64,000 nt of DNA from Candidatus Levyibacteriota bacterium (GTDB taxonomy: Bacteria > Patescibacteriota > Microgenomatia > Levybacterales > GWA1-39-11): assembly GCA_018062815.1 (NCBI GenBank), contig JAGORM010000001.1, positions 16,301-80,300 of the forward strand, read 5' to 3'. Both the position numbers and the translations under genes were made by a program. The notes below the pieces were generated by a model. It had not been told where the DNA came from, did no database searches, and worked only from the letters and a program-made list of their open reading frames with translations. Position 1 is the first letter of the stretch. Each line of letters starts with the position of its first letter. Shown here in pieces: positions 3,967 to 55,334 of this stretch.

Positions 3967-3970
3967 GTTT

Positions 3971-10248: not shown

Positions 10249-13200
10249 ATGAATGAAAGATTGTTGCCACAAGAATTGACAGCGGGAAGGGTATCTTCTA
10301 CACTTAATGTAAGGAGTACTATGCCAGAACCACAGAAAGAAGAATTCAATATTCCCAAAAAAATTGATAGACAGCCACTTGTTGCGGGAAGTACTTCTCC
10401 TCGTCCAGAAACTATGCAGGAGCTTATGCGTGGGCAGGCAGAACGTGAGGCAGCCCGTGCCATAGTGGAGGAGGCCAGGAAACAAGGAAAATCATTGTCT
10501 GAGGATCAAAAAAAGATTGTTTTTGAATCTGGTTTTAAACCAACTATTTATGGAGGTGCTGATGTTCCTGAGAATGATGACTATAATCCAGACAATGGAG
10601 AAGGTGAGGAAAATCAGAGGCCAGAGGTTGCAAGAAGGGGTTTTGAATTGAGACCTCCACGAGGTGTAGCTGCCGACAAACAACTTCTTGATGAAATAGA
10701 AAAATTTAATAATGTCAGTGAATTAGGTGTTGATTTTGATGATCTTAAACGCGAGGCTGAAAAAATTATGGATCTTCAGTCCTCAGACCCAAACAACCCA
10801 ATTACGTCAGAGCAAAAACAGGACCTGATAAGACAGCTTTCAAAAAAAGGACAAGAAATAGCGGCGGCAAGAATGAATAACCCGGATAGATTTGGGTTTT
10901 ATCTTGAAACGCAGGATTTGCGTGAATTAGATAGTGACCCTATGTCATGGTTAGATTCTCAATTCGGTCAAATATACGACTTGTCTAAGGCGGGAAGTGA
11001 GTTGGATTCTCCTATTTTGCAACGTGTACAGACAGAGGTGGGAGAGGCATCCGCTTATCTTCAGAAAAAATTTGGAAAATTCAGAAAAGAAGGAATAGAA
11101 AATGCAGCAGACATTGAGCGCGCAAATAGAGAGAGTAAGTTGCTACTAGAGTTTAATGAAACGTTTGCTATCAGGTTAAACCTTATTTTTGCAAGAACGG
11201 CAATTGACCAAAGGGGTATGGAGCAAATACAGGGAGCGGTAGGAAGGCTAAGGACATTAGGATTTGCAGGAGCGCAAGCTTTTGATAACGGGGCAGTTGG
11301 CGCTATGTATAACCGTATGGAAGCGATGCTTGGAAACTTGCGACTAGCTGAGGGAGGGCGTGAGCATCATCTTAACCCTGCATCCTTAAACAAGCTGCAG
11401 GATAAAACTATAGATGAGCAGATAGAGCTTGCAAAAAAGGGAGTAGGCATATTTGCAGGTAAATATAAAGAGATCTTATCAGATCCAAAAAAGCAGAATA
11501 ATGCTGATGATGTTTTAAAGCGGGAGATTACCAGATCAGTTAGAACGGCTTATGACATTTTAGTTGTATCTCAGAGAGTTGCAATTGTTGCTGCGAGGGG
11601 TAATTTTAGAGGAGACAGACAGCAGTACTTTTCTGATAACGGAGGAGCATTTGCAGTATTCAATTTAGAGCAAATGACAATTAACAAGTGGGATTTATTA
11701 AATCATGAAGAGCAGGAGTTCTTTGATTTTCTCAAGCTTGACATGGCAATTAATAATAAAAAGGGGATAGATGTCTCAAAGCTAACACGTGAACAATTGT
11801 TGGATTTAGGGGGGAGATTGTTTAGGGATTTATATGTGGTTCCTGATTTTTATTCATCCTCATGGAGAATGAATGGAATGAGAGACCAATTGGGGCGTGT
11901 AATTCAATATAAAGCGGAGAACGATAAAATGATTGAAAAGTTTATCGAAAGTTCTAATTTTACTCCGGCTGATGAAAATCTCAGAAGTTTGCAGGAGCAA
12001 ATGAGGACACAGATCCAGAATTACATGCAGGTATGGGATGAACTGAACCCTGTGCAGGGAAGGGTACAGGGAGACAGGGAAATAGCACAAAGACAAATTT
12101 CCCGTCAGATGTTTGAGAAGACCTTAACGCGTGAGCAAAGAGAGTTATGCCTTAATACACTTACACAGGATGAGAAGGCGAATGTTTTAAACACTACAAT
12201 AAAAAAGGCTGGTACACAATTAGGGAAAGAGATTGGAGATTTTGCCTTATTTGTACAGCTAAAACAGAGCTTGGGGCATTTAGGGCACAATGCTGGTTCA
12301 GCGCAGGAAATAAAGGATTATAGAGCTGGGGTTTGGGGAAAGATTCAAAAATTTAAAACAGAAGATATTATGCAGTTGATAAGAGGCCGGGCACGACCGG
12401 ATATATATACGGAAGACTACAATAATCTACGTGAGTTGTATACTCTTTTTGAGAGAAACGATTCAGAATTGGGGATATTAACAAATGAGCAAAAAGAATT
12501 GCAAAAAACGGGGGGGATAGAGGCATTTCATACATATGATAAATTTATTGAGAAATATGGGTCTGTAATACAGGCAATACGTCAAGATGCGATGCGAAAC
12601 GGTTTAACCGGTCCAGAGCAGGTAGATATGGCTAACTTAAGCCCTCGACATGTGGAGATGGTGAACAGAATGTTAGGAGGGAATGGGGCAGCGGTTACTC
12701 TCCAAAATATTTATAAGGACATGAATGGGTTTATAAATCGTCATAATATTATTAATGATTTTGTTACAAGTCAAAAGTATATAGATCTTTACAATAGAGT
12801 AATAAACGTAGAGGATGTAATGCTCGACACTCTTGAATCAATACCTGAAAATGCAGGATTCCAGAAGTTGTCAGAGTATTTTACTGCAGAATCAGGGGCA
12901 GATGCTTTGAAACGCAATTTTAATGATATAGGAAATGCAGTTAATGCAGGAAACGCATTCATTAAATTTGTTACAACTGAAGATAAGGAGGGCAGATTTA
13001 AAGAATCCAAAGCTATGAAAAGCGCTGTGGAGGCATATAATGGTCGTACAAATGGAGCTGAAGTTATGCGATTTACTTACGGGACAGAATTGTTATACGC
13101 AACTCAATATTATTGGATTAACACCTTGCGTTTAGGCGCACTGCCATTCAGAAAGCCAAGCTCCATGAAGCAGGAGCATTATGGTATTGGTGCAAAGTCT

Positions 13201-13434
13201 TTGACACGACAAGATGTACGAGGGGATTTGGATCATCATAAAACAGAATTTGTAGGGCGCGGATCCGATGCTGATAAGTGGTTTCTTCAACTGGAGGAGT
13301 TGACGGGAACAGATATGAAGTCCACAATGAAAAGAAACGCGCTAACGCTTTTGATATACGCGTTTTTAGGGATTGTTATAGGAGCTCCGGTAGGTGCAGC
13401 CTCCGCAGCATTAGCAGGAGCACAGAAAGGATAA
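10249..13434 (+). CDS. Giant (1061 aa) mostly helical hypothetical protein with a C-terminal TM anchor
   Basis: ORF track; divergent from the regulator gene. Disordered acidic N-terminus, no enzymatic motif. C-terminal LTLLIYAFLGIVIGAPVGAASAALAGA helix. Confidence 0.5.
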   Translation: MNERLLPQELTAGRVSSTLNVRSTMPEPQKEEFNIPKKIDRQPLVAGSTSPRPETMQELMRGQAEREAARAIVEEARKQGKSLSEDQKKIVFESGFKPTIYGGADVPENDDYNPDNGEGEENQRPEVARRGFELRPPRGVAADKQLLDEIEKFNNVSELGVDFDDLKREAEKIMDLQSSDPNNPITSEQKQDLIRQLSKKGQEIAAARMNNPDRFGFYLETQDLRELDSDPMSWLDSQFGQIYDLSKAGSELDSPILQRVQTEVGEASAYLQKKFGKFRKEGIENAADIERANRESKLLLEFNETFAIRLNLIFARTAIDQRGMEQIQGAVGRLRTLGFAGAQAFDNGAVGAMYNRMEAMLGNLRLAEGGREHHLNPASLNKLQDKTIDEQIELAKKGVGIFAGKYKEILSDPKKQNNADDVLKREITRSVRTAYDILVVSQRVAIVAARGNFRGDRQQYFSDNGGAFAVFNLEQMTINKWDLLNHEEQEFFDFLKLDMAINNKKGIDVSKLTREQLLDLGGRLFRDLYVVPDFYSSSWRMNGMRDQLGRVIQYKAENDKMIEKFIESSNFTPADENLRSLQEQMRTQIQNYMQVWDELNPVQGRVQGDREIAQRQISRQMFEKTLTREQRELCLNTLTQDEKANVLNTTIKKAGTQLGKEIGDFALFVQLKQSLGHLGHNAGSAQEIKDYRAGVWGKIQKFKTEDIMQLIRGRARPDIYTEDYNNLRELYTLFERNDSELGILTNEQKELQKTGGIEAFHTYDKFIEKYGSVIQAIRQDAMRNGLTGPEQVDMANLSPRHVEMVNRMLGGNGAAVTLQNIYKDMNGFINRHNIINDFVTSQKYIDLYNRVINVEDVMLDTLESIPENAGFQKLSEYFTAESGADALKRNFNDIGNAVNAGNAFIKFVTTEDKEGRFKESKAMKSAVEAYNGRTNGAEVMRFTYGTELLYATQYYWINTLRLGALPFRKPSSMKQEHYGIGAKSLTRQDVRGDLDHHKTEFVGRGSDADKWFLQLEELTGTDMKSTMKRNALTLLIYAFLGIVIGAPVGAASAALAGAQKG

Positions 13435-13446
13435 AAAGTAAAAATA

Positions 13447-15162
13447 TTATCTTCCAAACATTCCCCTAAGGAATTTTTTGCCTGCTTCTGCTGCGTGGAG
13501 TTGACCATCTTTGCCATACTCTGCTTTTGCTCCAAATGCCATTTCCTTAACCCCACTAATTCCTTTTCCTCCTACTGCCTGAGAAGCACCAAATGATGTT
13601 CTAATATCTTTCAACCCAAAGTCCATAGCGCCAACTGCTTTTCTGGTACGGTCTAATATGCTTGGCATGGATATAATAAAGCCAAAACCTATAAATGCAG
13701 CCAGGGCAGGGCTTCCACCGACAGCGTCTCCTATAAGTGGAGGAGAAAATAGTCCGCCCTGATTCCCCACATTACTCATAATAGTTTTTCCAAGTAGTAT
13801 TACCCCAAATGCCATAGGAAAGACTGATAAATGGCCCATAAGATGCCTTATCCAAGTAGAAAATCCTAATTTACTTCCCGGAAATATTCCGGCAGTTATC
13901 CAAAGCGGGGCAACTATTACGTCAATTAACACATAAATAAAGGACTTAATAAGCGTAAACCATACCCTAAATAATGAGAAGATAATAGCAATAAGGATAA
14001 TTAAAAATGTAACAATTGTAAAAAGACTGATAATTGCCGCCCTGAAGAACGATTCCACAAAATTACATCCACCCCCCGCAAACATTCCCCCTATTGGAGT
14101 ATCTCTTAACCATCCTCCCAATCCTGGTACCCATCCCAATGCCCCTAACCCTACTGTTGCTCCTACCTTACCCAGGTCTACCACCCCGCACCCAATAGAG
14201 CTAACGGCGTTAAAGGGGGTGAAGAAGACCTGGAAAAAAGATGAAATGGTTGACTCTAAAAAGTCTATGGACATATTTCCTAAAACCTTACTAACCCCAA
14301 ATGAAGTTTGTCCTGCAATCCCGATTATCCCTGGGATATGAGTAATACCAATTACGTTTGGAGTATCTATGCTAAAAGATTTGTTTACAACGCCAAATAC
14401 GGTGGATGAGGTATTAACATTTGTAGGTATAAGACTATTAAAAGTTAAGATAACAAGATAAAGGGATACATACATAAGGTCTATAAGAAGTCCTGCAATT
14501 GCGTATGAAAAAGTGACTAAAATAAGAGCTACTATTAGTTTTGGAATTTGGTTTTGAATACTCATAACAGTACGCGCATCAATTTTTACTCTAAACATGA
14601 TTGCAAGTCCAACAATGGTAAATGCCAAGACAAACGCGAGATAAGAAATATCTCTAAATCGTGCCCAAATTCCAAGAAGAGGGCGCAATCTATCAAATCC
14701 TACCCCGGTTTCCTCTGGATTATTTTGTGCATAAGCGCTGCGTGCTACCCCAAAGTTTCCAGCCATGTATGTTGCATAATCTACCCCTGAAACAGGCAGC
14801 ATAAATGTTTCTCCTATAAGTCTTCCCATAATTTGCGTTGCTCCACCTCCTTGGGTTTCATATCCTATTTGCCCACTATTTACATCTACTCCCAAACATG
14901 TTTTTTTTGGGTCTAGGGGGTTATATCCTGAAAGTATGCAGACAGTGCTTGATAAGGTGTTGATAATGGCTGATTGAGTAAGAGTATTAAGATTTTGAGG
15001 AGCTTGAGAGTTAACGTTTCCGTATAATATTTGACTGTTCGTAGTTGGGGCAGTGGTAGTTGTGGGCGTAGTAATTGTCGGTGCTTGAGCAAGAATGGGT
15101 TTTATGCTGCTTATTACAAGAAAGAAGACAAGAACGTATAGAATATGTTTTAGTTTATTCAT
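13447..15162 (-). CDS. VirB6/TrbL-like polytopic membrane protein (start moved to MNKLKHILYV)
   Basis: Signal peptide followed by a Thr/Pro-rich segment and at least 8 predicted TM helices. Lies in the T4SS-like locus, convergent with the 1061-aa gene. Call rests on architecture only. Confidence 0.45.
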   Translation of the reverse strand: MNKLKHILYVLVFFLVISSIKPILAQAPTITTPTTTTAPTTNSQILYGNVNSQAPQNLNTLTQSAIINTLSSTVCILSGYNPLDPKKTCLGVDVNSGQIGYETQGGGATQIMGRLIGETFMLPVSGVDYATYMAGNFGVARSAYAQNNPEETGVGFDRLRPLLGIWARFRDISYLAFVLAFTIVGLAIMFRVKIDARTVMSIQNQIPKLIVALILVTFSYAIAGLLIDLMYVSLYLVILTFNSLIPTNVNTSSTVFGVVNKSFSIDTPNVIGITHIPGIIGIAGQTSFGVSKVLGNMSIDFLESTISSFFQVFFTPFNAVSSIGCGVVDLGKVGATVGLGALGWVPGLGGWLRDTPIGGMFAGGGCNFVESFFRAAIISLFTIVTFLIILIAIIFSLFRVWFTLIKSFIYVLIDVIVAPLWITAGIFPGSKLGFSTWIRHLMGHLSVFPMAFGVILLGKTIMSNVGNQGGLFSPPLIGDAVGGSPALAAFIGFGFIISMPSILDRTRKAVGAMDFGLKDIRTSFGASQAVGGKGISGVKEMAFGAKAEYGKDGQLHAAEAGKKFLRGMFGR

Positions 15163-15259
15163 AGGGCAGGTAGTTTTAGTATGGCTCAGAATGCAATAAA
15201 AAGTCAAGGAACATATAAGTAGGGGTTTTAATTGACAACTATATATAAAACAGGGTATC

Positions 15260-15820
15260 ATGCGACTAGGTATGAAATTAAAAATTGCCATCCTGTTTCT
15301 TATAAGCTTTGTTTTTATATTTGTGAAAACAGCCGCAGCGCAGGTAATAGAACTTTCCCCAACCATTCCTGTATCCACCCCTACCGCAGTTGTTCAAACT
15401 GTAGACTACCAGCTTCCATATCCAGGTCTTCTCCCAGATAACCCTTTATATATATTTAAGGCGGCACGTGATAAGGTCGTAGAATTTCTTATTTCAGACC
15501 CGGTTAAAAAAGCAGAATTTTATTTACTCTCATCAGATAAAAGAGTTAACACAGGTTATTATCTTATTATAAAAGGGAAACATGACATGGGGATGTTGTA
15601 TATTTCAAAAAGTAATAGTTATTTAAGTCTTGCAAATTCTGCGACTGCACAAAGCGGAGAAAATGGAAAGAGTATCCGTGACAGATTAGACTTATCTGTT
15701 AAAAAACACATAGAGTTACTAAACTCTTTAACTAAAAGAATTGATAAAAAAAATAGCACAAAACTTGCAAATGAGATTAAGAGACTAGAAAAATTTCAAA
15801 CACTTATTAATAAGAAGTAG
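15260..15820 (+). CDS. Secreted hypothetical protein (signal peptide, K-rich C-terminus)
   Basis: ORF track; MKLKIAILFLISFVFIFVKTAAAQ signal-like N-terminus. Confidence 0.4.
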   Translation: MRLGMKLKIAILFLISFVFIFVKTAAAQVIELSPTIPVSTPTAVVQTVDYQLPYPGLLPDNPLYIFKAARDKVVEFLISDPVKKAEFYLLSSDKRVNTGYYLIIKGKHDMGMLYISKSNSYLSLANSATAQSGENGKSIRDRLDLSVKKHIELLNSLTKRIDKKNSTKLANEIKRLEKFQTLINKK

Positions 15821-24109: not shown

Positions 24110-25912
24110 TTACATCTCCACAGAATAAACGGTGTTATCTGAGACTATATAGATTTTTTTATCCTTTTCGTCTGCCGCAATTGATTTTGGATTTTTCAGA
24201 CCTGAAAGAGGAATTTCTAACACGGGATTTCCACTTTTATCTATTATGTATACAATTTTCTTTTCGGGGTCGAGTATGTATAAATTTGTGTAATCTATGT
24301 CTGTGTAAATGGTAGACGTTGTAGATAGGGGTTTACCTTTATAATTAAAACTGTCTTCCTTCCCTCTGGTATATTTTTTTATAGATCCATTTGCTAGTAC
24401 ATAAATTGATGAGTCAATTGCAAAACTTGAAGGATTTTGAATTGTTGTATCATTTGTAAAATATGCTGCTTTGCTAAAGCTATCAGGAAGATATTTGTAA
24501 ATTGTCTTGTCTGTCTTTGAGAGCAGGTAGATATTTCCTCCAAAAGTATCAATTGAAATAGGGCCTGCCTGCTTTTGAATTATAGTATCTGATTCGCCAT
24601 TCTCTTTTGTGATCTGATTAACCGTTTCTCCATCCAGAATATAGACATTTTCCTCATCTGCTGTAACCCCGTGAGCAGAGTCTGCGCCGTTAAATGTCGT
24701 ATCAACTGATCCGTCAGGTTTTAATAATCCTCCCTTTGTAGGTCCAATTACTGCAATCCCTCCCCCCTTTGCTGTTATGTATTTAACGCTGGGAATTTCT
24801 GTATTTTTTCTGGCATCAAAAAAGATATTTATTCTTGATTTTCCTCCTGATACTTCACCTCCCAAAGCTTTATTCACGTTCTGCAAAAAAGAATCAAGAG
24901 TTTTCCTGGCATTACTTTCTTGCGGGAATTGGGGTAGCTTGCTTTCAACATTTGATTTTATTTCTGTCAATTCTTCTATTGCTAGACTTTTATTTAAGCT
25001 CATAAGTGCAACAGCATCTTCATACTTTTGTTTGTTTTCAGAAAGAACTAATTGTGCCTGTTCTTCCATGTGTGCGTTCTCTTTTCCTGTTTTTTCAAGA
25101 AATATACTTATTCCCAGAACTACAAATAAAAATAAAACGCAAACAATAATAAGTTGTTTTTTTGAAAGCCTTTTAAGGGATGGAAATTTTACCCTCTTAA
25201 CTATTCCTTCCAAATTGAATTTAGGCATTAGTATTTTTTTTTCTTTGTCTTCTGTATCATTTGTAAGGTCAAGGGTGTCGTTATCAGGCACAGACTCATT
25301 TTCTTCAATTACTTTTCTTTCTCCTATCATGTTCCAAATTAAAGCAGCCTCTTTTCCCGTTGGCTCATCGTGAATAAAAGGTGCAATTGACTCACTTATG
25401 TTGTGAGGGGTACCTGCGCCTAATGACTTTTCAATTTCATCTGATGAGACTGTTGAAAGTAAGCCTTCAGTTGCAACTAAAATAATATCTTCAGGTTCAA
25501 CATTCCCTGAAAAGCCGGTTGTCTTGTTGCTTTCTCCAGTTGCAATGATTGTTGTTTTTCCGTCACGTCGCAATAAAACACTGCCTGAATGAGCAATTAT
25601 TATATAAAGTGTTGTATTGACTATGGTTGTCAAGACAAGTGATAAGGATACATTTTCTGCTAGCTCGCCTACAACTGTTTCCACTGCTTTTTTGAGTGTT
25701 TCTAGATTTTTTTCATCCAATGCAAAAAACTCTCGCTGTAAACGCTCCAGGGTATCTTTTCCCAATGAAGCAATTGTTTCCTTACCTTCTTCATGAAGAC
25801 TTATGACAAGATGTAGCTTGCCCGCGCTATAAGCCTGTGCCCAAGAAGATGAGGTGGCTGTTGCGACTACTTTAGCAACTGGGGAAGAATGTTCCATTAC
25901 TCCATTATACAA
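24110..25912 (-). CDS. Membrane-anchored protein: N-terminal PP2C-like (possibly degenerate) domain, TM, coiled coil, C-terminal beta-propeller-like repeats
   Basis: IIIAHSGSVLLRRDGKTTIIATGE and DIILVATEGLLSTVSSDEI resemble the PP2C motifs GDSR.../SDGL... but lack the canonical Asp residues. TM LIIVCVLFLFVVLGISIFL. Repeats of Y/F-x-DG/N-S in the C-terminal half. Confidence 0.35.
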   Translation of the reverse strand: MYNGVMEHSSPVAKVVATATSSSWAQAYSAGKLHLVISLHEEGKETIASLGKDTLERLQREFFALDEKNLETLKKAVETVVGELAENVSLSLVLTTIVNTTLYIIIAHSGSVLLRRDGKTTIIATGESNKTTGFSGNVEPEDIILVATEGLLSTVSSDEIEKSLGAGTPHNISESIAPFIHDEPTGKEAALIWNMIGERKVIEENESVPDNDTLDLTNDTEDKEKKILMPKFNLEGIVKRVKFPSLKRLSKKQLIIVCVLFLFVVLGISIFLEKTGKENAHMEEQAQLVLSENKQKYEDAVALMSLNKSLAIEELTEIKSNVESKLPQFPQESNARKTLDSFLQNVNKALGGEVSGGKSRINIFFDARKNTEIPSVKYITAKGGGIAVIGPTKGGLLKPDGSVDTTFNGADSAHGVTADEENVYILDGETVNQITKENGESDTIIQKQAGPISIDTFGGNIYLLSKTDKTIYKYLPDSFSKAAYFTNDTTIQNPSSFAIDSSIYVLANGSIKKYTRGKEDSFNYKGKPLSTTSTIYTDIDYTNLYILDPEKKIVYIIDKSGNPVLEIPLSGLKNPKSIAADEKDKKIYIVSDNTVYSVEM

Positions 25913-26147
25913 AAATTGTCACAAGAAGCAGTAGTAATGTTGAGAAAATAACGGTGTAAGCAGTAAATTTAAGAACAGGAGAAAAAGAAACCTGGTTAAT
26001 AAGCTTTGTAAGAGATGAAATTTGACGTGCCAAAATTATTGTAAATAAAAGAAATAATAGCTCTAATAACACAAGAGCAATTTTTACAAATATATCAGGT
26101 GAGTTCAGAAAATTTGTTATGTTTGTAATTATAGTTTCTAGGTTCAT
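25905..26147 (-). CDS. Small two-TM membrane protein (80 aa)
   Basis: ORF track; hydrophobic; overlaps the downstream gene start by 8 nt, suggesting operon coupling. Confidence 0.35.
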   Translation of the reverse strand: MNLETIITNITNFLNSPDIFVKIALVLLELLFLLFTIILARQISSLTKLINQVSFSPVLKFTAYTVIFSTLLLLLVTIFV

Positions 26148-26152
26148 ATTTG

Positions 26153-26830
26153 TTATACGGGTTCATCTACTACTAATTCGCCGATTATCTTTCTTACCAT
26201 ATTTGGGTTCGGGGCACGGTCATACTCTATATTTTGGTGGATTCCCTCAGTCTGTATGAATATATCTCCATAGTCAAAAATACTCCTAATTCCGCCTGCT
26301 TGAGTAAATGATACGTCTACAATACTTGGAAGACGAGCCTCAGAAATCATTTTTACAAGTATATTTGGGACATCCAAGTCCATAGCTCGTTTATTTGTGA
26401 CTATTCCCACGTTAAAATACCATATTGAAAAATTTAATAATGTAAAGCCAAAAACTATTAAATAGTAAAATAGCGTAGAAAGTAGTAATAGTATTGGGGA
26501 TATAACTATTCCAGAAAAAAAGATTTGGGAAAGGAAAAAAATCACAGGAGGTACAAAAAGAAGGAGTATAGATGAGAGAATCCAGGGTACATTTGTGATA
26601 AAGTCACGTCTTACTAAAAGTACTACATCCTCATCTGCCTCCTGATTTTGAAATGTTACACCGTCTGGGTAAACGGACATAGATGAATAAAATTTAGGCT
26701 TTTTGTGTTCATGGTTATGGACAAGAAGCTCTGGGCTTGGATCTTTCTCTTGTGCATTTTTCTGGTGTTTATCAGGCTCTGTTTTTTGTTGACTCAAGAC
26801 AAACTCTCCTTTTAATTTTTCATTATCCAT
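26153..26830 (-). CDS. Membrane protein with a bacterial PH (bPH_2/YdbT-like) domain
   Basis: Two TM helices, then IVTNKRAMDLD...GDIFIQTEG...NPNMVRKIIGELV, typical of the bPH_2 family. Confidence 0.45.
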   Translation of the reverse strand: MDNEKLKGEFVLSQQKTEPDKHQKNAQEKDPSPELLVHNHEHKKPKFYSSMSVYPDGVTFQNQEADEDVVLLVRRDFITNVPWILSSILLLFVPPVIFFLSQIFFSGIVISPILLLLSTLFYYLIVFGFTLLNFSIWYFNVGIVTNKRAMDLDVPNILVKMISEARLPSIVDVSFTQAGGIRSIFDYGDIFIQTEGIHQNIEYDRAPNPNMVRKIIGELVVDEPV

Positions 26831-26883
26831 ATAGTATTAGAATTATTACGCTTTCCACAAAGCAAAGTAATTATATCAGAGTA

Positions 26884-28590
26884 TTACTGTTTTTCGACAT
26901 TATAGAGCGGTCCTACAATTTGCAGGTTTGCGGGTGCTCGAAGATTGAACCAGTTCTTGAATTCGTCTCCAGAGAAACTTTGTTGCGTGTTTCCTGAAAC
27001 GCTTATTGAAGACGTTTTCCCTCCACCAAAATCTGGGGAAACTGAAATATCTGAAACGCTTGTAAAAGGAGTGATCCCTTTATTCTGAAGCTCTTGTCTT
27101 ACTCGATCTTCATTCCAGGTGTCTGTCCCTTCAGGATTTGGTTTATCCGGTTGATATAAGTGTTTTCCAGCGGATGAGTCTGCTCGTCCAAGCAGAATGA
27201 CATTCACTATATCCGCAACCTCACTTGGCTTAAGCCATGCCGTTTTATTGTATTCAGGACGTGCTCCCCAGTCACAGTAAAACCATGGTGACTCCTTATC
27301 ATATGCGCGATCATTCCACTCAGCAAAGCTTGTAGGTGTGCCTACCTTCCCGTCAAACTTGCCAAGGTTTTGGATATATCCACCATGAGTGGATGCGTAT
27401 TGCGTAAAGCCAGGGTTTCCTCCATCCATTAAAACCCATCCTGCAGTTGCGTTTACTGCCTGTTCCCAATTACCGCCTTTTGGATCAGGTTTAAATACTT
27501 GACAGGCTTCAGTCGTACATATGTGACCGTTTCGTTGCGCAGAGTTTAATGCATATGTTCTAGCAGCAACAGCTTGTGCTTTCAAAACAGCAAGATTATT
27601 ATCTGTCCAAGAATCAGGTACTTCATAAATTCTTTTTACATAATCTTCAATAGAAAATGTTCCATATCCATCTACATTTATCTGAACTCCTTGGTCATAA
27701 TCTTTTTTTAATGTCATATTAGGATAATACGCTGCAAGTATTGCTTCTTCGTTTTGCCCATCTTTTGCTCGTCCCCATGCTCCGTATTGATTCATCCCAT
27801 TTCTGTGAGGCGCACCATACGTAAAAAATGCAATTCTCGGGCTAAATCCGGGATCAACGCTTCGATCATCGCTGCACCCTCTGGCTGATGTTCCTGCGGA
27901 GCGAGGAATTTTCAAGCCTGCTAATCTTTGAGACAAAATAGCCTGTTGTTTTGCTGAAAGCTCAGCAATCTGTGAAGTAAGAGTAGCCTGGTAAGCACGT
28001 GCGCCGTCTACTAATTTTTGAACATCTGCTTTTTGTGTATCAACCTGTTTCTTTATAGAGGCGAGTCTTACTTGTTCCTCTTCAAGGGCTTTTTTGCGTT
28101 CTTCAAGATCAATTATTTTTAAAGCAATTGTTGTAATTATTTCTTTGTCTTCATCCTGACCTTTTTTTTGGTATGCAATTATTTTAGTTGCGTCTTGTGC
28201 ATCTTTTGATGACAAAAATATAAGCAAAGGAGAAAACACATAATTTTTTATATAGTAGTTGCGCACTGCCTTGTTAAAAACTGCCCGTTGTTCCCCTAAG
28301 TCTATGTACCCTTTGGCAATATTTTTTTTCTTTTCGGCAATATCTGATTCAATTCCCGAAACTTGTAATGTAATCGCGTCAAGTTGTTTTTTCATGCTTA
28401 CCAGTTGGGATTCAAATGGTGCCGTTGCCCTCTGGGATGATGAAAGTGAGCTTTGGAGATCTGCGATCTTACGGCTTATATCATCAAGTTCATCAGAATA
28501 TGCCTGGGATTTTATAAAAAAAATTGAAGAAATCAAGAAAAGAATAACCACAACTAAGCTAAAAAGTTTTCTCATGGGAGTAATAATCAT
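26884..28590 (-). CDS. Secreted coiled-coil protein with a C-terminal SpoIID/LytB-like domain
   Basis: Signal peptide and a long coiled coil. NLAVLKAQAVAARTYALNSAQRNGHICTTEACQVF is the SpoIID/LytB signature. Confidence 0.6.
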   Translation of the reverse strand: MIITPMRKLFSLVVVILFLISSIFFIKSQAYSDELDDISRKIADLQSSLSSSQRATAPFESQLVSMKKQLDAITLQVSGIESDIAEKKKNIAKGYIDLGEQRAVFNKAVRNYYIKNYVFSPLLIFLSSKDAQDATKIIAYQKKGQDEDKEIITTIALKIIDLEERKKALEEEQVRLASIKKQVDTQKADVQKLVDGARAYQATLTSQIAELSAKQQAILSQRLAGLKIPRSAGTSARGCSDDRSVDPGFSPRIAFFTYGAPHRNGMNQYGAWGRAKDGQNEEAILAAYYPNMTLKKDYDQGVQINVDGYGTFSIEDYVKRIYEVPDSWTDNNLAVLKAQAVAARTYALNSAQRNGHICTTEACQVFKPDPKGGNWEQAVNATAGWVLMDGGNPGFTQYASTHGGYIQNLGKFDGKVGTPTSFAEWNDRAYDKESPWFYCDWGARPEYNKTAWLKPSEVADIVNVILLGRADSSAGKHLYQPDKPNPEGTDTWNEDRVRQELQNKGITPFTSVSDISVSPDFGGGKTSSISVSGNTQQSFSGDEFKNWFNLRAPANLQIVGPLYNVEKQ

Positions 28591-28635
28591 AACAATTTTT
28601 ATCTATTCTTACAACCAGGGGGAAGAAATTGTGGG

Positions 28636-28707
28636 TGGGCGCGGCAGGATTTGAACCTGCGACCAATTGTGTATAAGACAACCGCTCTACCACTGAGCTA
28701 CACGCCC
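28636..28707 (-). tRNA. tRNA with anticodon UAU (tRNA-Ile reading AUA)
   Basis: Reverse complement GGGCGTG-TA-GCTC-AGTGGT-AGAGC-G-GTTGT-CTTATAC-ACAAT-TGGTC-GCAGG-TTCAAAT-CCTGC-CGCGCCC-A forms a cloverleaf. The 7-nt anticodon loop is CU-UAU-AC. No encoded CCA. Confidence 0.75.
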
Positions 28708-28762
28708 AAAAAGGAAACTGTGGTAAATTATAGCACGAGAAAGGAAAATATTCGATTCGTAA

Positions 28763-31195
28763 TTATATAAGGCCGCCGTTGCCGCCACCTAGCTTATCTC
28801 CTCCGGGGTTACCAAATGGATCTTCACCTCCTGGACCTAAATCACCAAATACTTCAAATAATTTAGAACGTTTTGCTATTTCAGCCTCAACTAATTCTTT
28901 TGGCTTTCCGTATTTTAGCCTGGATAGCTCCTTAACTAATTCAGCGACCCTAGGGTTTGCCATTTTTCGTTCAGCTTCAATATCTCGAGTAAGATCCATT
29001 GAGAATGGTGGAGCGGGCTCATTTTTGATAACAGTTTTAACATATGCGTGACGTGCCTCAATATTTATCAGATCAGCTTCGGTAAAGGTTGGCTGAAATT
29101 CATGTTGCAGATAATTTGCATCAGATACGCCTACTCGGAATGATACAATAGTTCCGACGTTTCCAAAAATAGCATTTTTAATTTCCTCCTCAATTTGCCC
29201 TATGAATTGGTTTGCAACTATTAGGTTTAATCTATATTTTCTTGCCTCAGAGAGTATTTGCGCAAAATCAGGCGTTGCAAAATTTTGAAACTCATCTACA
29301 TAAAGGAAAAAATCGCGCCTTTGTTCCTGCGGAATATCTTGTCTACTCATAGCAGCAACGAGTATTTTGGGAACCAGTATAAGTCCAAGAAAGTTTGAGT
29401 TTTCTTCACCGATTTTCCCTTTGGCAAGCGAGATAAGAAGAATTTTACCCTCATCCATTGAGCGTCTAAAATTAAAAGATGAGTCAGATTGACCGATCAT
29501 ATTTCTCATCATGGTGTTTGTAACAAATCTTCCAAATTTTGAAGTAATATAATCTAATACTTCAGATTTATGAAAGTCAGAAGTTTGTGCTATCTGATCA
29601 GTCCAGTAGCGTCTGATAATAGGATCTTTTACTTTAGGGAGAAGTTCCTGGACAAAATTTTGATCAGTTAAGACGCGCATAACCTCCACAAATGTATTCC
29701 CCGGCTCGGACATAACGGTAAGCATAGCATTTCTTACAGCGTGCTCAAATCTAGGGCCTATGATACCTGTTTGATGTGGATCAAAGAGCTTATACATGAG
29801 CCCTATAATGGATGTTACCACCAAATGTTTTTGTTCTTCTGTTTGAGCCTCAAGCATATTTAGTCCCATTGGCCGTTCTGTGTCTGATGGATCAAAAAGT
29901 ATTACGTCTTCTGCGCGTTCAGGCGGAATTAGTGGCAAGATTAAATCAATTGTGTCATGAGGGTCAATAAAGCAGACTCCGTGCCCTGCCTTAATATCTT
30001 GCAGTATCATATCTTTTAGAAATTCAGATTTTCCTACACCTGTTTTCCCGACTATATACATATGTCTTCGTCTGTCGTCTTCCCCTATATATATGGGTTT
30101 TGAATTTCCCCTGTATTCACTTTTTCCAATATACAGTCCGGTTGTAGGAATACTTGCAGGTGCAGGGGCACTGCGGGCAGCTAGCCAGTGAATATGTGGG
30201 CTTTCAACAGACTTATTCGGAAAGTGGAAGATAGTCGCAAGTTCATCAACGGAAAGGACTGAACCTTTTTTGAGAAGAGGAAGTGTTCTGTAAATAAAAT
30301 CCACCATAAACATTCCCTTGAAATACTTCATTTTTTCCTTGGAGAAAGAATTGTATGAGGAGAATTGAGTAAATGAGGTAACCATATTTTCCAAATGCGC
30401 ATTTGCTGCTTCTTTTGAAGATGATGAGACAACAAGTCTTATATAAGTGTTGAAAGCAGGTTTTGACAGTTTTCCCTCTATTGCCTCCAATTCCTTTTGG
30501 TCAACTGAATATTTTGCTGTTTCAGGATTTGCCTCTCTTTTTTTAATGCCTGTTATATGTGCACGCCCCTGTTTTTTCCATTTCCCGTCAGTAGGAGTAA
30601 TAAGTATTTGGATAGCAGCAGATTCGCCTTCCTGCATTTTCCCAAGAGTTGAAACCATTGTTGACATTGGGTCAACAGGAAGTTGCTGAAAAGATTTTAT
30701 TGGAATATAAGGGGAAGATTTTAAAACAAGTCCTGCAAATGCTACCTTACTTTCATCTGAGAAAATATCATATTCTTCAGCAGGTGAAATACTCGCGTCG
30801 GGATATGCACCGTGGATTTGTTTTTCAACCATATCTTCCAACTTCTTAGGTATTGATACGTAAAACCTGATATCTCCTGTTTTAGCAACTATTTCAAATG
30901 CTATATAATCAGGTACTTTTGAAAATCCCAGTAATCCCTTTGCTCCTTTTATTCCAGAAAACGCCGAAAACATTTGTTCTGCAGCATCTATCTTTATTTC
31001 ATTCTCTCGGGGTAGTTGTACTTCAAGCAAGACCATATCAAGAGCCTTTTTCTGTCTTTCGCGGTTTTTCTTCCAAAAAAGATATGCGACATATATTCCT
31101 AAGACTGCAAATACAATCAAGCTTGTGAGGAGGATTCCTATAGCAAGAACAAAAAGAAGCGTTATGATGTTGTTTACAATGTCTACCCCTGTCAT
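28763..31195 (-). CDS. Membrane-anchored FtsK/HerA/TrwB-superfamily ATPase; type IV coupling protein (VirD4/TraG)-like
   Basis: N-terminal TM. Walker A IVGKTGVGKSEF, Walker B FFLYVDEFQNF, then SEARKYRLNLIVANQFIGQI (the arginine-finger/Q-rich motif of T4CP/HerA-type ATPases). Gly-rich C-terminal tail. Confidence 0.5.
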   Translation of the reverse strand: MTGVDIVNNIITLLFVLAIGILLTSLIVFAVLGIYVAYLFWKKNRERQKKALDMVLLEVQLPRENEIKIDAAEQMFSAFSGIKGAKGLLGFSKVPDYIAFEIVAKTGDIRFYVSIPKKLEDMVEKQIHGAYPDASISPAEEYDIFSDESKVAFAGLVLKSSPYIPIKSFQQLPVDPMSTMVSTLGKMQEGESAAIQILITPTDGKWKKQGRAHITGIKKREANPETAKYSVDQKELEAIEGKLSKPAFNTYIRLVVSSSSKEAANAHLENMVTSFTQFSSYNSFSKEKMKYFKGMFMVDFIYRTLPLLKKGSVLSVDELATIFHFPNKSVESPHIHWLAARSAPAPASIPTTGLYIGKSEYRGNSKPIYIGEDDRRRHMYIVGKTGVGKSEFLKDMILQDIKAGHGVCFIDPHDTIDLILPLIPPERAEDVILFDPSDTERPMGLNMLEAQTEEQKHLVVTSIIGLMYKLFDPHQTGIIGPRFEHAVRNAMLTVMSEPGNTFVEVMRVLTDQNFVQELLPKVKDPIIRRYWTDQIAQTSDFHKSEVLDYITSKFGRFVTNTMMRNMIGQSDSSFNFRRSMDEGKILLISLAKGKIGEENSNFLGLILVPKILVAAMSRQDIPQEQRRDFFLYVDEFQNFATPDFAQILSEARKYRLNLIVANQFIGQIEEEIKNAIFGNVGTIVSFRVGVSDANYLQHEFQPTFTEADLINIEARHAYVKTVIKNEPAPPFSMDLTRDIEAERKMANPRVAELVKELSRLKYGKPKELVEAEIAKRSKLFEVFGDLGPGGEDPFGNPGGDKLGGGNGGLI

Positions 31196-31207
31196 ATTTT
31201 TAATTTT

Positions 31208-31729
31208 CTAAGCTGCCTTTTTACCACCAAGTATCTTGGGCAATTTCCCCCATTTTAAAATTTTCCATCTGTTGTGAGTGGCTTTGTTTAGAACTTTTCC
31301 ATCTCCTTTTCCGAATGGTCCGGAATTAAGCGCATCAAAATCAGAAATAGTTGTGGTTTTTTGGGTGAGTGATACGTTATCGCCGGATACGCCCTCTACA
31401 GGATGAGTAGGTCCTGTTACCTCGGCTTGTGTCCCGTCAAGCGCTTGAACAGTTTCCTGTGCCGTAAGATGTTCGCTTGTTGGTTGGACAAACTTTTCCA
31501 ACTCCTGAGAAACTTTTGGATCTACAGATTCTTTGGCAGCTTCAATATCAGGTGAGGTTTCAAGCGTTTCCTCAACTGCCGCATCAGATACTGCGCCACT
31601 TGTTACTTCCTTCTCAATTTCTACTGCTTCCTTTGTGGCAATTTCATTTGATAGTTCCGTGCCCTTGCTCTGTGCTGACAGATCTAGGTTGGCGGGGGTA
31701 TTTTTAACTTCACCTTGTGCTTGACTCAT
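31208..31729 (-). CDS. Hypothetical acidic low-complexity protein (173 aa), probably co-transcribed with the downstream ATPase
   Basis: ORF track; 13-nt gap to the ATPase gene; E/T/S-rich. Confidence 0.35.
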   Translation of the reverse strand: MSQAQGEVKNTPANLDLSAQSKGTELSNEIATKEAVEIEKEVTSGAVSDAAVEETLETSPDIEAAKESVDPKVSQELEKFVQPTSEHLTAQETVQALDGTQAEVTGPTHPVEGVSGDNVSLTQKTTTISDFDALNSGPFGKGDGKVLNKATHNRWKILKWGKLPKILGGKKAA

Positions 31730-31821
31730 GTTTTCATGATATCACCAATAGCTTCTTTTGGCAATTTCACAAACCCAACAAAAGAGTAACAGGATGAAAG
31801 GGGAAAAAAGGCTAGTATGTG

Positions 31822-31913
31822 CGGAGGAGACAGGATTTGAACCTGCGCGAGCCTGTTTAAGGGGCTCAGGGGGTTAGCAACCCCCCGCAATGGACCAACT
31901 ATGCGACTCCTCC
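31822..31913 (-). tRNA. tRNA-Ser (anticodon GCU), class II with long variable arm and G73
   Basis: Reverse complement GGAGGAG-TC-GCA-...-TGC-G-GGGGG-TTGCTAA-CCCCC-(variable arm GAGCC...GGCTC)-GCAGG-TTCAAAT-CCTGT-CTCCTCC-G. Confidence 0.75.
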
Positions 31914-31979: not shown

Positions 31980-32064
31980 GGAGAGGTCGCATAGTGGCCT
32001 AGTGCAGCGGTTTACTAAACCGCCGTATCGCAAGATACCGAGAGTTCGAATCTCTCCCTCTCCG
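31980..32064 (+). tRNA. Class II Ser-type tRNA (G73, long variable arm) with the unusual anticodon ACU
   Basis: GGAGAGG-TC-GCA-TAGTGGCCTAG-TGC-A-GCGGT-TTACTAA-ACCGC-C-GTATC-GCAA-GATAC-C-GAGAG-TTCGAAT-CTCTC-CCTCTCC-G. The anticodon stem has 5 Watson-Crick pairs; loop positions 34-36 are A-C-U. Followed by a T-run. Confidence 0.6.
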
Positions 32065-35786: not shown

Positions 35787-37982
35787 ATGTTTATGAACTT
35801 TATCTCAAGATTATTTGTATTAACACTTAGCTTTTTTTTAGGACTAACAATTGTTTCACCAGTTTTTGGCGAAGAAGTTATTAGTAATTGGTCTTCTACC
35901 TCCTCGATCCCTAATTTATTGGCAAGTCACACTTCCTTTGTGATAAAAAACAAAATATATGTTTTAGGAGGATCGGCAGCTACAGGGCAAAGTCATTCTG
36001 GTGTTATCTTTAACATTCCTAGTTCCAATGGGACACTGGGTAGCTGGTTAAGTTCTACAACCTTTCCGATTGCCCCAATCTATCAGGCAACAACAGTAAA
36101 AGAAAATAATGTTTATGTGTTAGGAGGGCTTGAAGAGAATCCGGGTTCAGCCCAGGGCTTTGTCCCAAAGGTTTTCCTAAATAAAGCTTTACCTGATGGA
36201 GCGCTTTCTAGTTGGGAACCGCTTAACCCCTTACCTGTTCCCCTCGGACAAGGAGGGACAACAATAATAGGGAAGTGGATATATTATTTAGGTGGGAAAA
36301 ACAGCAACAGCGTTAGTGATAAAGTCTACTACTCGTTTATTAATGATGATGGAAGCATTGATGATTGGAGCACCAGTCTTGTGAGCCTTCCTCATCCTAT
36401 GACTGGATTAGGTGTAGTATCCTACAAGAATAATATTATTGTGGTAGGGGGAGTTGTTGGTGGTGTTGTGACGAATAAAGTCTATAAAGCAGCAGTAGAT
36501 CCCGCGAATGGTACTATTTCTGAATGGCAGGAGCTTACAAATTTACCCTCTGTTTTCAATGGAACAAATCAAGTAATAGTTGTAGAAAATAAATTAATAA
36601 CGGTAGGAGGTGGGGATAGTAATGGCCCAACAAAAAAAGTGCTATATACAACTATTAATTCTGATGGGACGATTCAAGATTGGGTGGAGAGCGGAAATGT
36701 TTTGCCTCAGCCAGTGGGCGGAGGGGCAATAGGGTATGTAAATGGGTATTTGTATAGCATAGGTGGGTATAACAATGGATATTTAAATAATGTTTATTAC
36801 AGTAAACTTAATATAGATAAAATTTTAGGCGTTCCTTTATTAAAACAGACTGATCCTTTTTGGGGAGATTTAGTTTATGATTCGGCAAATCTTTGGTCAC
36901 CACAAGACCCATCAATTGCTAGGTGGGGATGCGCTTTAACATCTGCTGCCATGACTTTTAATTATCATGGAATTGTAACATTACCAAATGATTTGCCTCT
37001 TACTCCAAAGAGGTTAAATGAATGGTTAAAAAGTGAAGTAGATGGGTATGTTGGGAGTGGGCTAGTCAACTGGCTCGCACTATCTAGACTATCTAAGGAA
37101 GCCAAGCCTAAGAACCCTGATTTTTTATATGATGCTTTGGAATATAGCAGGACAGGATTTAACTCAGTAACACTTAAAGATGATTTGAAAAACAATATTC
37201 CTTTAATTCTTGAGGTGCCAGGGCATTTTATTGTAGCGCAAGGAAGCACTAATGACACGTTTTACATAAATGATCCTTACTACTCAAAAACATTACTTTC
37301 AGACTATGGTAATACTGCTCTATCTATGGGTAAGTTTACCCCTTCAAATACTGACCTCTCTTATGTAATGTTAATTACTGATGAAGGAATAAATCTTTCT
37401 GCCTTTCAAAAATTCGGGCCTATGAGTGTACCTGCAGGATCAGGATTTCTTCAGCAGCCTTTAGTAAAAGAGGAGGGAGCTGAAAAAAGCGGGCCTCCTA
37501 TGTATTTTCATTACATTCCAAAACCCACAGATGGTGGAGATTTTTTAGTGAACATTTCTTCAAATACAATAAAGCCATATACGCTCAAAGCGTATTTTTA
37601 TGACGTTGAAGGAAGGGTGAGAATAGAAACCATAAAGGGAATTGTAGGGGATAATATTCCAGATAGTTACACAATATTATTTAATAAGCAAAACTCTCAG
37701 GCTTCTAAAATTTCAAAGAAATATTCATTCGATTCGTTAATTGCAGACTTAGATAGATTTTACAAAAATAAATTAATTACTAATTCAAAAATATATAAAG
37801 CCTTAAGACTAGATGTTGTTGAGGCAAAGAAGTTTTCAGTCAAACAAAAAAAATTATCTAGAACCCTTCTGGGGGCATTTATTATTGTGCTTGATTCAAG
37901 TCATAAAATATTTATAAAGACAGATGCATACCAGGTATTAAGACCACAAGCGGTTTTTCTATACAACTCATTAAAGCCATAA
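35787..37982 (+). CDS. Secreted protein: N-terminal Kelch-type beta-propeller repeats fused to a C39-like (papain-fold) cysteine peptidase domain
   Basis: Signal peptide. Repeated Y-x-x-GG motifs (KIYVLGG, NVYVLGG, WIYYLGG, IIVVGG, GYLYSIGG). Later ARWGCALTSAAMTFNYHG (candidate Cys) and PGHFIVAQGSTNDTFYINDP (candidate His). Confidence 0.45.
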   Translation: MFMNFISRLFVLTLSFFLGLTIVSPVFGEEVISNWSSTSSIPNLLASHTSFVIKNKIYVLGGSAATGQSHSGVIFNIPSSNGTLGSWLSSTTFPIAPIYQATTVKENNVYVLGGLEENPGSAQGFVPKVFLNKALPDGALSSWEPLNPLPVPLGQGGTTIIGKWIYYLGGKNSNSVSDKVYYSFINDDGSIDDWSTSLVSLPHPMTGLGVVSYKNNIIVVGGVVGGVVTNKVYKAAVDPANGTISEWQELTNLPSVFNGTNQVIVVENKLITVGGGDSNGPTKKVLYTTINSDGTIQDWVESGNVLPQPVGGGAIGYVNGYLYSIGGYNNGYLNNVYYSKLNIDKILGVPLLKQTDPFWGDLVYDSANLWSPQDPSIARWGCALTSAAMTFNYHGIVTLPNDLPLTPKRLNEWLKSEVDGYVGSGLVNWLALSRLSKEAKPKNPDFLYDALEYSRTGFNSVTLKDDLKNNIPLILEVPGHFIVAQGSTNDTFYINDPYYSKTLLSDYGNTALSMGKFTPSNTDLSYVMLITDEGINLSAFQKFGPMSVPAGSGFLQQPLVKEEGAEKSGPPMYFHYIPKPTDGGDFLVNISSNTIKPYTLKAYFYDVEGRVRIETIKGIVGDNIPDSYTILFNKQNSQASKISKKYSFDSLIADLDRFYKNKLITNSKIYKALRLDVVEAKKFSVKQKKLSRTLLGAFIIVLDSSHKIFIKTDAYQVLRPQAVFLYNSLKP

Positions 37983-53286: not shown

Positions 53287-53291
53287 AAAAT

Positions 53292-53630
53292 TTATATTTC
53301 TGGTATAGATATTTCATTCGTATTATCTATGGCCCTTGTAGGCGTTGGTAATATTATTGATTGTGACTGGGTAGGCGTAGGTAAAAGAGGGGTAGGTGTC
53401 GGTTGTGCGCTTTGTGTGGCAATATCTTGACCTAAGTCCACCTGTATTTGAAGTCGTGATTTAAGACTATCAATAGTTTGATTATTAAAGTTAGGAGAGA
53501 TAGGAATAATCTGTTCGGTTACATTACTATTAATTGATGATCCGTTAAAGATACTGTAAATAGTCAATGATATCCAAACGAGTACTACAAATGTTGTAAA
53601 AGCCGCAAGATAGGCTAAATTTTTTAACAT
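53292..53630 (-). CDS. Small single-TM protein with a Pro/Thr-rich tail (112 aa)
   Basis: ORF track; TM AYLAAFTTFVVLVWISLTIYSIF. Confidence 0.35.
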   Translation of the reverse strand: MLKNLAYLAAFTTFVVLVWISLTIYSIFNGSSINSNVTEQIIPISPNFNNQTIDSLKSRLQIQVDLGQDIATQSAQPTPTPLLPTPTQSQSIILPTPTRAIDNTNEISIPEI

Positions 53631-53636
53631 ATATGT

Positions 53637-54793: not shown

Positions 54794-54855
54794 AGTTTAA
54801 GTGTAATGCGTTTTTGCTTGTTTGTCAAAGAAGTGAAGATTGGTTTTGAGAAGAA

Positions 54856-55170: not shown

Positions 55171-55334
55171 CATAATTAAATAATAGTTCCTTGGAAACCT
55201 TGTTTTCCTAAAGACAGACAATATTGTACCATGCTATACTTGAAAAATAAAGCCCAGGTGGGATTTTTTTAGTTTTGCCGCAAGCGGTGATTTACAGTAG
55301 CAAACGTTAGGTTTAAGTTTATTAAGATAGAAAA

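Follow-up and report, generated by a model that had tools for sequence, protein, structure and literature searches.

The stretch of 64,000 nucleotides analysed here, referred to below as the window, comes from the genome of a Candidatus Levyibacteriota bacterium (assembly GCA_018062815.1, contig JAGORM010000001.1, positions 16,301 to 80,300 of the forward strand). Its minus strand carries two closely spaced genes, the first for an acidic, low-complexity protein of 173 residues and the second for a membrane-anchored ATPase of 810 residues (Table 1); genes of a type IV secretion system (T4SS) are located near the beginning of the window. The identity and architecture of the ATPase are nearly certain. 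It is a near-universal core ATPase of Patescibacteria from the DUF8128 family, and corresponds by gene order to SEML1_0142, a gene of Southlakia epibionticum scored as essential.

The ATPase and its small upstream partner

The sole hydrophobic segment detected by hydropathy within the 810-residue ATPase is located at about residues 10-42, and in the AlphaFold2 model (pLDDT 91.1, pTM 0.83) residues 3-52 form one long helix. This transmembrane (TM) helix is directly followed by a basic stretch, KKNRERQKK, implying an N-out, C-in topology. With a single TM helix ahead of the N-terminal domain and the motor, and with basic residues after this helix, both domains are placed in the cytoplasm. The N-terminal helix is the only anchor in the cell membrane, all remaining parts of the ATPase being cytoplasmic. 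A preliminary description of this DNA had correctly given the ATPase (exactly 810 residues, with one hydrophobic segment), its extended region of about 330 residues ahead of the Walker A motif (which starts at residue 383), its Gly-rich tail and the preceding acidic protein of 173 residues. The N-terminal region was, however, described there as an extracytoplasmic or linker segment; it is modelled instead as a compact cytoplasmic domain (pLDDT 94) with the predicted fold of a VirB4 N-terminal domain. Sequence-level proof that DUF8128 is the VirB4 N-domain was sought using hhalign against the VirB4 of the window, TrsD and an alignment of 120 VirB4 sequences, none of which gave a significant match. 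The Gly-rich tail is restricted to the Levybacteria lineage, as found by comparison of tails across the family, and therefore is not a family feature.

The catalytic motifs of the motor are conserved, and the motor shows the sequence signature of type IV coupling proteins (T4CPs). Both members of the TraG-D_C/TrwB_AAD_bind signature pair were matched over a short stretch, PF12696 with 26.0 bits (cut-off, 22) and PF10412 with 24.1 bits (cut-off, 20.5), and PF02534 was matched by relatives of the ATPase. The RecA-like nucleotide-binding domain includes an inserted all-alpha domain, another T4CP trait; the insertion is placed as are the all-alpha domain of T4CPs and the helical bundle of the VirB4 C-terminal domain (CTD). 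A profile of the family matched TrwB (2.5e-7) and DotL (1e-5), and the same search recovered no FtsK chain and no VirB4 chain. The comparison of motors gave the highest figure for the VirB4 CTD (29.9), followed by the DptH/DndH C-domain (28.6), TrwB (27.1, with 359 residues of the ATPase aligned to a solved chain of 420 residues), HerA (24.8), DotL (24.0), Cagbeta (21.6), TcpA (17.5) and FtsK (16.8), indicating that the motor groups with VirB4, T4CPs and HerA rather than with FtsK. The architecture is modelled as a hybrid, in which a VirB4-type N-domain is joined to a nucleotide-binding domain with helical insertion that is closest to T4CPs by sequence. Both the fold in two domains and the resemblance to VirB4 and TrwB are high-confidence predictions.

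The ATPase differs from the known members of each group. T4CPs such as VirD4, TrwB, TraD, DotL and Cagbeta have two TM helices, whereas the window ATPase has one, and carries between this helix and the motor a VirB4-like domain of about 300 residues. Unlike T4CPs, it is found without relaxase or DNA transfer and replication (Dtr) genes, and is chromosomal, vertically inherited, near-universal in the phylum and apparently essential. Its scores against the NCBIfam equivalogs of TraD and VirD4 stay far under the cut-offs (SXT_TraD, 47.5 bits against 366; conj_TOL_TraD, 32 bits against 648; CD1115-family VirD4, 26.7 bits against 250). In contrast to VirB4, TrwK, TraC and TrbE, it carries a TM helix of its own, its gene is not located beside VirB3/PrgI, a separate genuine VirB4 is present, and no significant match was obtained to VirB4 models (TIGR00929, 13.9 bits against a cut-off of 643; PF03135, no match) or to the N-domain of the VirB4 encoded by the same genome. 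With FtsK/SpoIIIE and the TcpA-type coupling proteins, it shares the ATPase superfamily and the membrane anchor.

The 173-residue protein contains 27 acidic (D+E) and 18 basic (K+R) residues, has no TM segment by hydropathy, and matched no family in Pfam or NCBIfam. It is probably the partner of the ATPase and co-transcribed with it. Neither open reading frame (ORF) is a chance ORF, because over 5,600 homologues of the ATPase were scored and the upstream ORF is conserved in position across Patescibacteria classes. Among 86 related loci (individual loci are designated by L numbers), a same-strand ORF of at least 50 residues ends beside the ATPase start in 80, although some of these ORFs are spurious. 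By reading of the sequences, about 60 of the upstream ORFs combine an acidic or low-complexity body with one of several lineage-specific C-terminal segments, mostly basic and often with Trp: RWLAEWxxRxxK-like in Microgenomates, TWxxxLLDRxLKK in Dojkabacteria, DWLKIIPGVNKFFLEQEAKIK in Parcubacteria-type genomes (18 loci that cluster by BLAST) and DDPY...YIKKRY in Saccharibacteria. The small partner evolves very fast, even between genomes in which the ATPases are 73-88% identical.

In two loci, L040 (233-2773) and L043 (9545-12286), a low-complexity region with RWLxxFxxRxxKK is fused in-frame to the DUF8128 domain; the TM helix is absent from these fusion proteins and the partner stands in its place. 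L040 and L043 are sister loci in the tree, and a single fusion event is therefore probable. This fusion supplies a Rosetta-stone-type argument that the partner and the ATPase work together, and hints that the Trp-rich segment of the partner acts at the membrane. The hydrophobic moment of the C-terminus of the window partner was not above that of shuffled sequences (118 of 500 shuffles reached its value), and a membrane-binding helix in the partner is accordingly a suggestion drawn from the L040/L043 fusion.

Table 1. Features of the window: the ATPase gene pair, its parts, and the T4SS and tRNA genes discussed in the text
Feature	Position	Strand	Basis or remark
ATPase ORF, 810 aa	28763..31195	-	Patescibacteria DUF8128 / T4CP-like family, membrane-anchored
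Single N-terminal TM helix (residues 10-42)	31070..31168	-	hydropathy and AlphaFold2 helix 3-52
N-terminal cytoplasmic domain (residues 53-345, = Pfam DUF8128), predicted VirB4 N-terminal-domain-like fold	30161..31039	-	
RecA-like nucleotide-binding domain (residues 354-735)	28991..30136	-	
Walker A, GKTGVGKS (residues 383-390)	30026-30049	-	
All-helical insertion (residues 453-567), between Walker A and Walker B	29495..29839	-	secondary structure of the model
Walker B, FLYVDE (residues 630-635)	29291-29308	-	
ATPase motif SEARKYRLNLIVANQ (residues 649-663)	29207-29251	-	
Gly-rich C-terminal tail DLGPGGEDPFGNPGGDKLGGGNGGLI (residues 785-810, last 26)	28766..28843	-	disordered, pLDDT <50
Acidic low-complexity protein, 173 aa	31208..31729	-	ORF; upstream, 12-nt gap to ATPase start
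Basic Trp-containing C-terminal segment NRWKILKWGKLPKILGGKKAA of the 173-aa protein	within 31211-31288	-	
Sigma-70-like promoter match TTGCCA-17-TGnTATCAT, just 5' of the 173-aa ORF	31736..31764	-	consensus scan only, which is no proof of function
virB4, cut by the window edge	1..~1680	-	Pfam, NCBIfam, six-frame reading
TrsD-like gene	1679-2293	-	Pfam, NCBIfam, six-frame reading
PrgI/VirB3-like gene	2303-3418	-	Pfam, NCBIfam, six-frame reading
T4SS pilin genes (three)	5961-6308, 6370-6834, 7177-8802	-	Pfam, NCBIfam, six-frame reading
Opposite-strand ORFs within the T4SS genes	3622-3966, 3971-5917	+	no family match, not counted as T4SS
tRNA-Ile(UAU), between ATPase and SpoIID-like gene	28632-28708	-	own promoter-like TGcTATAAT

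Family breadth, inheritance and the counterpart in Southlakia epibionticum

In members of the DUF8128 family, a P-loop motor comes after an N-terminal DUF8128 domain, and a single TM helix usually stands ahead of both. The window ATPase is assigned to this family through the precomputed annotation of its homologues: the best 120 (772-814 residues, mostly from Levybacteria) are 68-90% identical to it, and homologues within this range carry PF26449 (DUF8128), PF10412 and PF12696. A Pfam scan of the window ATPase itself gave no PF26449 match, in a Pfam copy that may lack this model. An exhaustive HMMER search gave 22,641 clusters (50% identity) at E<=1e-3 and 5,866 at E<=1e-30. The combination of N-domain and motor is common to 117 of the 150 best cluster representatives, in most cases behind a single N-terminal TM segment; other members have the same motor behind an unrelated N-terminus of about 1000 residues, or carry long C-terminal extensions. 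Those with the unrelated N-terminus, including P0180, P0192 and P0195 (about 1300-1510 residues), share the motor at about 50% identity and lack a TM helix, and some members with C-terminal extensions reach 2006 residues. A profile search added members, 40-47% identical, that are named Parcubacteria, Paceibacteria, Doudnabacteria, Kerfeldbacteria and Moraniibacteria, and 80 species-representative genomes supplied loci with record titles from Microgenomates, Dojkabacteria, WWE3, Saccharibacteria, Magasanikbacteria, Berkelbacteria and others.

The identity of the ATPase between genomes tracks that of ribonucleotide reductase (RNR) and SmpB (for instance, 68% vs 68%, and 45% vs 44%), and in a neighbor-joining tree the ATPases group largely by lineage names, except for a separate clade of second copies. 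The RNR- and SmpB-like conservation and the grouping by lineage together indicate that the gene is a vertically inherited core gene and not the cargo of a mobile element. A strong match (3e-105) of ATPase residues 217-778 to phrog_5156, an 824-position PHROGs profile of unknown function, led us to weigh an origin from a phage or mobile element; IMG/VR, however, gave only 20 relatives, nearly all of them motor-only, and this origin was set aside. The PADLOC model mad8 also matches the ATPase motor (2.9e-18).

The counterpart in S. epibionticum ML1 could be located by gene order. In L069, L071 and L080, the order is the same as in the ML1 stretch SEML1_0138-0145: YifB on the minus strand, two small ORFs, an ATPase of 991-1032 residues and two minus-strand ORFs. 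GyrB and GyrA come next in L069 and L071, and the contig of L080 ends before them. The ATPases of these three loci are 39-41% identical to the window ATPase over about 770 residues and belong to the main tree group, in which the window ATPase is also placed. On the basis of this synteny and the main-group position, the gene pair of the window is matched to SEML1_0141/0142, and the window ATPase, judged from synteny and architecture, is probably the orthologue of SEML1_0142.

In the transposon insertion sequencing (Tn-seq) data of Wang et al. 2023 (PMC10633639), SEML1_0142 was scored essential, with 9-11 insertions tolerated in the gene. Its upstream neighbour SEML1_0141, a gene of 139 residues located 12 nt upstream, was called GD/ES/ES at T0/T1/T2, with 9 insertions in the input DNA and then 0, 0 and 0. 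A second paralogue, SEML1_0293 (921 residues, with a strong PF10412 match), was called NE/NE/NE (82 in the input DNA, then 87, 120 and 110), and the canonical FtsK, SEML1_0096, was called GD/ES/ES (78, then 4, 1 and 1). The same study described the essential T4SS cluster of S. epibionticum as being without recognisable coupling or relaxase proteins, and did not discuss SEML1_0141/0142.

Quinonero-Coronel et al. 2025 (PMC12102498) reported 5,713 VirD4-type homologues in 2,918 of 3,035 Patescibacteria genomes, virB4 in 2,417 genomes, and relaxases in only 103 of the 3,035. Their T4CP homologues and the window ATPase very probably constitute one protein family. That this family exists and is encoded apart from virB4 is already published, and the gene of the window is an ordinary representative of it. 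The ML1 homologue was called non-essential in that study, whereas the Tn-seq data score both SEML1_0142 and SEML1_0141 essential; because SEML1_0293 is non-essential by Tn-seq, the non-essential ML1 "t4cp" is most likely this paralogue and not SEML1_0142. In the literature searched, we found no description of a VirB4-type N-domain, of a small partner that is conserved and in some cases fused, or of the essentiality of one ML1 paralogue together with its partner.

Gene context and the T4SS genes

The T4SS genes of the window begin with a virB4 fragment that is 100% identical to a 697-residue protein of a Levybacteria metagenome-assembled genome (MAG). The preliminary description placed the ATPase gene 13 kb away from the T4SS locus, a distance that requires the unannotated ORFs at 10-15 kb to be included; the recognisable T4SS genes end with a pilin gene (7177-8802) 20 kb from the ATPase, and virB4 is 27 kb away. 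Three large ORFs or ORF regions by the T4SS genes, at 3622-5917 (+), 10249-13434 (+) and 13447-15378 (-) (648, 1061 and 643 residues, respectively), gave no Pfam or NCBIfam match, and may encode divergent VirB6- or VirB8-like or surface components. The pilin-like protein of 541 residues (7177-8802, -) is unusually long, with the T4SS pilin domain only at its C-terminal part (467-529), and adjoins two short pilins. The window, a chromosomal stretch, also holds tmRNA, SmpB, NrdR, class II RNR, UvrD, MurJ, PurD, LepA and TIM.

T4CP genes are expected beside relaxase and Dtr genes or mating pair formation (Mpf) genes, yet only 3 of the 86 ATPase loci include a T4SS gene within 10 kb. In L030, virB4, TrsD and PrgI are located 7 kb from the ATPase, and in L048 and L049 (Dojkabacteria) T4SS pilin genes are located 6-8 kb upstream; with an iterated hidden Markov model of T4SS pilins, such genes were detected in the vicinity of the ATPase in 2 loci only. 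In three Levybacteria genomes, virB4 and the ATPase gene are on the same strand with a spacing of 27-32 kb. This spacing might simply reflect general synteny around the origin, given that the T4SS cluster of L109 is flanked by dnaN.

The genes adjacent to the ATPase differ between lineages. In Microgenomates and Dojkabacteria, a convergent Xer-type tyrosine recombinase gene directly follows the ATPase in 20 of the 86 loci and a DivIC/FtsB-like gene in 18 (Xer/DivIC-like loci: L004, L010, L014-L019, L022, L025, L028, L034-L038, L041, L044, L046 and L048). In Parcubacteria-type genomes, a protein of 210 residues of unknown function (18 loci) and dnaX (16 loci) are encoded beside it.

Beyond the tRNA-Ile(UAU) gene, a block of four minus-strand genes (24110-28590) encodes a coiled-coil SpoIID-like protein, a bPH-domain membrane protein, a DUF5657 protein and a PP2C-like TM protein that ends in a beta-propeller-like repeat region. 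The order of these genes after the ATPase is found only in close Levybacteria (5 loci), and the tRNA-Ile gene with its promoter-like site intervenes; a single operon of the block with the ATPase was thus rejected. In Dojkabacteria, most of the block is located between the T4SS pilin genes and SmpB, a small ORF and the ATPase (L048, 3881-9004; L049, 2884-8556). This recurrence beside T4SS pilins is a weak hint, and by analogy with VirB1 the block is a candidate for a cell-wall-remodelling accessory module of the T4SS.

Several other features were noted in the window. The AUA codon is read in most bacteria by a lysidine-modified CAU tRNA, and the window carries the tRNA-Ile(UAU) listed in Table 1. 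A class II tRNA-Ser(ACU) with the anticodon loop UUACUAA (31980-32064, +) is divergent from tRNA-Ser(GCU) (31822-31913, -); an A34 tRNA-Ser is unusual for bacteria, and inosine modification or a recent duplicate is possible. A PilO-domain gene (53637-54242) is located within a run of small minus-strand genes (51910-55221), by a 458-residue protein with fn3 and Big_13 domains, and this run probably belongs to a type IV pilus cluster. In Levybacteria, a protein with Kelch repeats and a Peptidase_C39_2 domain is repeatedly encoded beside a methyltransferase, no more than about 10 kb from the ATPase (window, 35787-37982, +; L001, 525-2690; L003, 3395-5164).

Coupling to the T4SS or an independent machine

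We favour, at roughly the odds of a coin toss for the link itself, the view that the ATPase is a T4SS-associated coupling or docking ATPase that is encoded apart from the T4SS genes. We infer that, at the membrane, the ATPase would assemble into a ring that works as an ATP-driven motor for translocation or docking. Through its VirB4-like N-domain, it would bind to the inner-membrane platform (PrgI/VirB3, TrsD, VirB4) of the chromosomal, relaxase-less T4SS, in a manner modelled on the docking of the VirB4 N-domain onto VirB3 and VirB8; the substrate would then be recruited and energised by the motor together with the helical domain. The acidic partner would be the adaptor, regulator or membrane tether of the ATPase. 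The T4SS would be genetically split, as the preliminary description suspected, and the split would be the normal state in the phylum.

Two lines of evidence support the link: the essential T4SS cluster of S. epibionticum is without a recognisable coupling protein, and SEML1_0141 and SEML1_0142 are both scored essential, and a residual linkage persists (virB4 at 27-32 kb in the three Levybacteria and at 7 kb in L030, and the pilin genes in Dojkabacteria). A series of observations weighs against it. The VirB4-like N-domain rests on predicted structure only, and its profile-profile comparison with Levybacteria VirB4 was not significant (E 0.26). Both the pair of TM helices that canonical T4CPs carry directly before the motor and the relaxase are missing. 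No T4SS gene was found within 10 kb in 83 of the 86 loci, only 148 of the 5,713 published VirD4-type homologues are near virB4 (PMC12102498), and the conserved neighbours of the ATPase are housekeeping genes. In addition, the orthology to SEML1_0142 is drawn from synteny and architecture, and the Tn-seq essentiality is equally compatible with any vital function.

The alternative that survives best, though still clearly less probable, is that the ATPase and its acidic partner constitute an essential, T4SS-independent membrane machine, exapted from a T4SS ATPase ancestor, with a possible role in the movement of DNA or protein in division or chromosome handling. Such an exaptation was raised by the authors of PMC12102498, and agrees with the rarity of T4SS genes near the ATPase gene and with the conserved neighbours, the Xer-type recombinase and DivIC-like genes or dnaX. 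These housekeeping neighbours, however, may reflect only a stable chromosomal position. Both domains of the ATPase are known only from T4SS-type ATPases, and the T4SS cluster lacks a coupling ATPase. The presence of T4CP-like genes in more genomes than virB4 (2,918 against 2,417 of 3,035, or 96% against 80%; PMC12102498) appears to favour independence, but this phyletic argument was rejected as nondiscriminating: given MAG incompleteness and two paralogues, a miss rate of about 20% for any single-copy gene leaves virB4 absent from about 20% of genomes and both paralogues from about 4%, in agreement with the reported values. The published figures therefore cannot separate the coupling, VirB4-like and independent readings.

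That the ATPase is a second VirB4-type assembly ATPase, which energises pilus or channel biogenesis and is not a substrate receptor, is improbable. The VirB4 CTD gave the highest figure in the motor comparison; the sequence models, however, place the motor with T4CPs and not with VirB4, and a bona fide VirB4, accompanied by TrsD and PrgI, is already encoded in the window.

The remaining readings, which liken the ATPase to FtsK, to HerA or defence proteins, or to products of mobile elements, are improbable even when taken together. The preliminary description had offered an FtsK/HerA-like translocase as the alternative, and had held that best matches to these families in a conserved non-T4SS context would speak against a coupling protein; outside Levybacteria the context is indeed of a housekeeping, non-T4SS kind, but the best matches are to T4SS ATPases. 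A chromosome translocase of the FtsK/SpoIIIE type is suggested by the common superfamily, a weak Pfam FtsK_SpoIIIE match at Walker A (E 0.005), and the Xer and DivIC-like neighbours in Microgenomates. This reading is largely refuted and very unlikely: the ATPase does not show the features that define FtsK (a motor above the Pfam cut-off, a multi-TM N-terminus and a gamma domain), and a substitute for FtsK was rejected since S. epibionticum has a canonical essential FtsK and the structural similarity of the ATPase to FtsK is much lower. Equally slight is the chance of a HerA-, DndH- or Mad8-like protein of DNA repair or anti-phage defence. The motor resembles those of DptH/DndH and HerA, and DUF87 fell just under its cut-off (22.7 bits against 23.2); the characters of HerA, namely a HAS-barrel N-domain, the HerA central domain and a NurA-type partner, were nevertheless not found, the neighbourhoods examined contain no nuclease partner gene and no conserved NurA, Sir2, dnd or methylase partner genes, and the near-universal, vertical occurrence, the housekeeping-like evolutionary rate and the apparent essentiality of the counterpart for growth are unlike those of defence genes. 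Least probable of all is that the ATPase serves an integrated conjugative element as its coupling protein, despite the T4CP-type Pfam matches and NCBI names of relatives such as 'conjugative DNA transfer family protein', given that the ORFs scanned in the window include no relaxase, integrase or other mobile-element gene, the GC content is even across the window, the chromosomal position is kept across genera, and relaxases are rare in Patescibacteria (103 of 3,035 genomes; PMC12102498).

Returning to the favoured T4SS association, a wider proposal can be put forward tentatively. The DUF8128 ATPases may represent a third lineage of T4SS ATPases, in which a VirB4-type docking domain is combined with a coupling-type motor, and which, with the fast-evolving acidic partner, could be the missing essential coupling ATPase of the relaxase-less T4SS. 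Their hybrid architecture may then be either an evolutionary intermediate or a chimera. The joining of a VirB4-type N-domain to a T4CP-type motor would bear on the divergence of the two T4SS ATPase families. The published dispensability of the ML1 "t4cp" appears to be limited to SEML1_0293, the other copy and its partner being indicated as essential. Patescibacteria account for a large fraction of bacterial diversity, and S. epibionticum, the one genetically tractable species, depends for survival on its host on a T4SS without a recognisable coupling protein or relaxase. If the ATPase and its partner are indeed the missing cytoplasmic entry point of this T4SS, they would be the obvious bait for its substrate.

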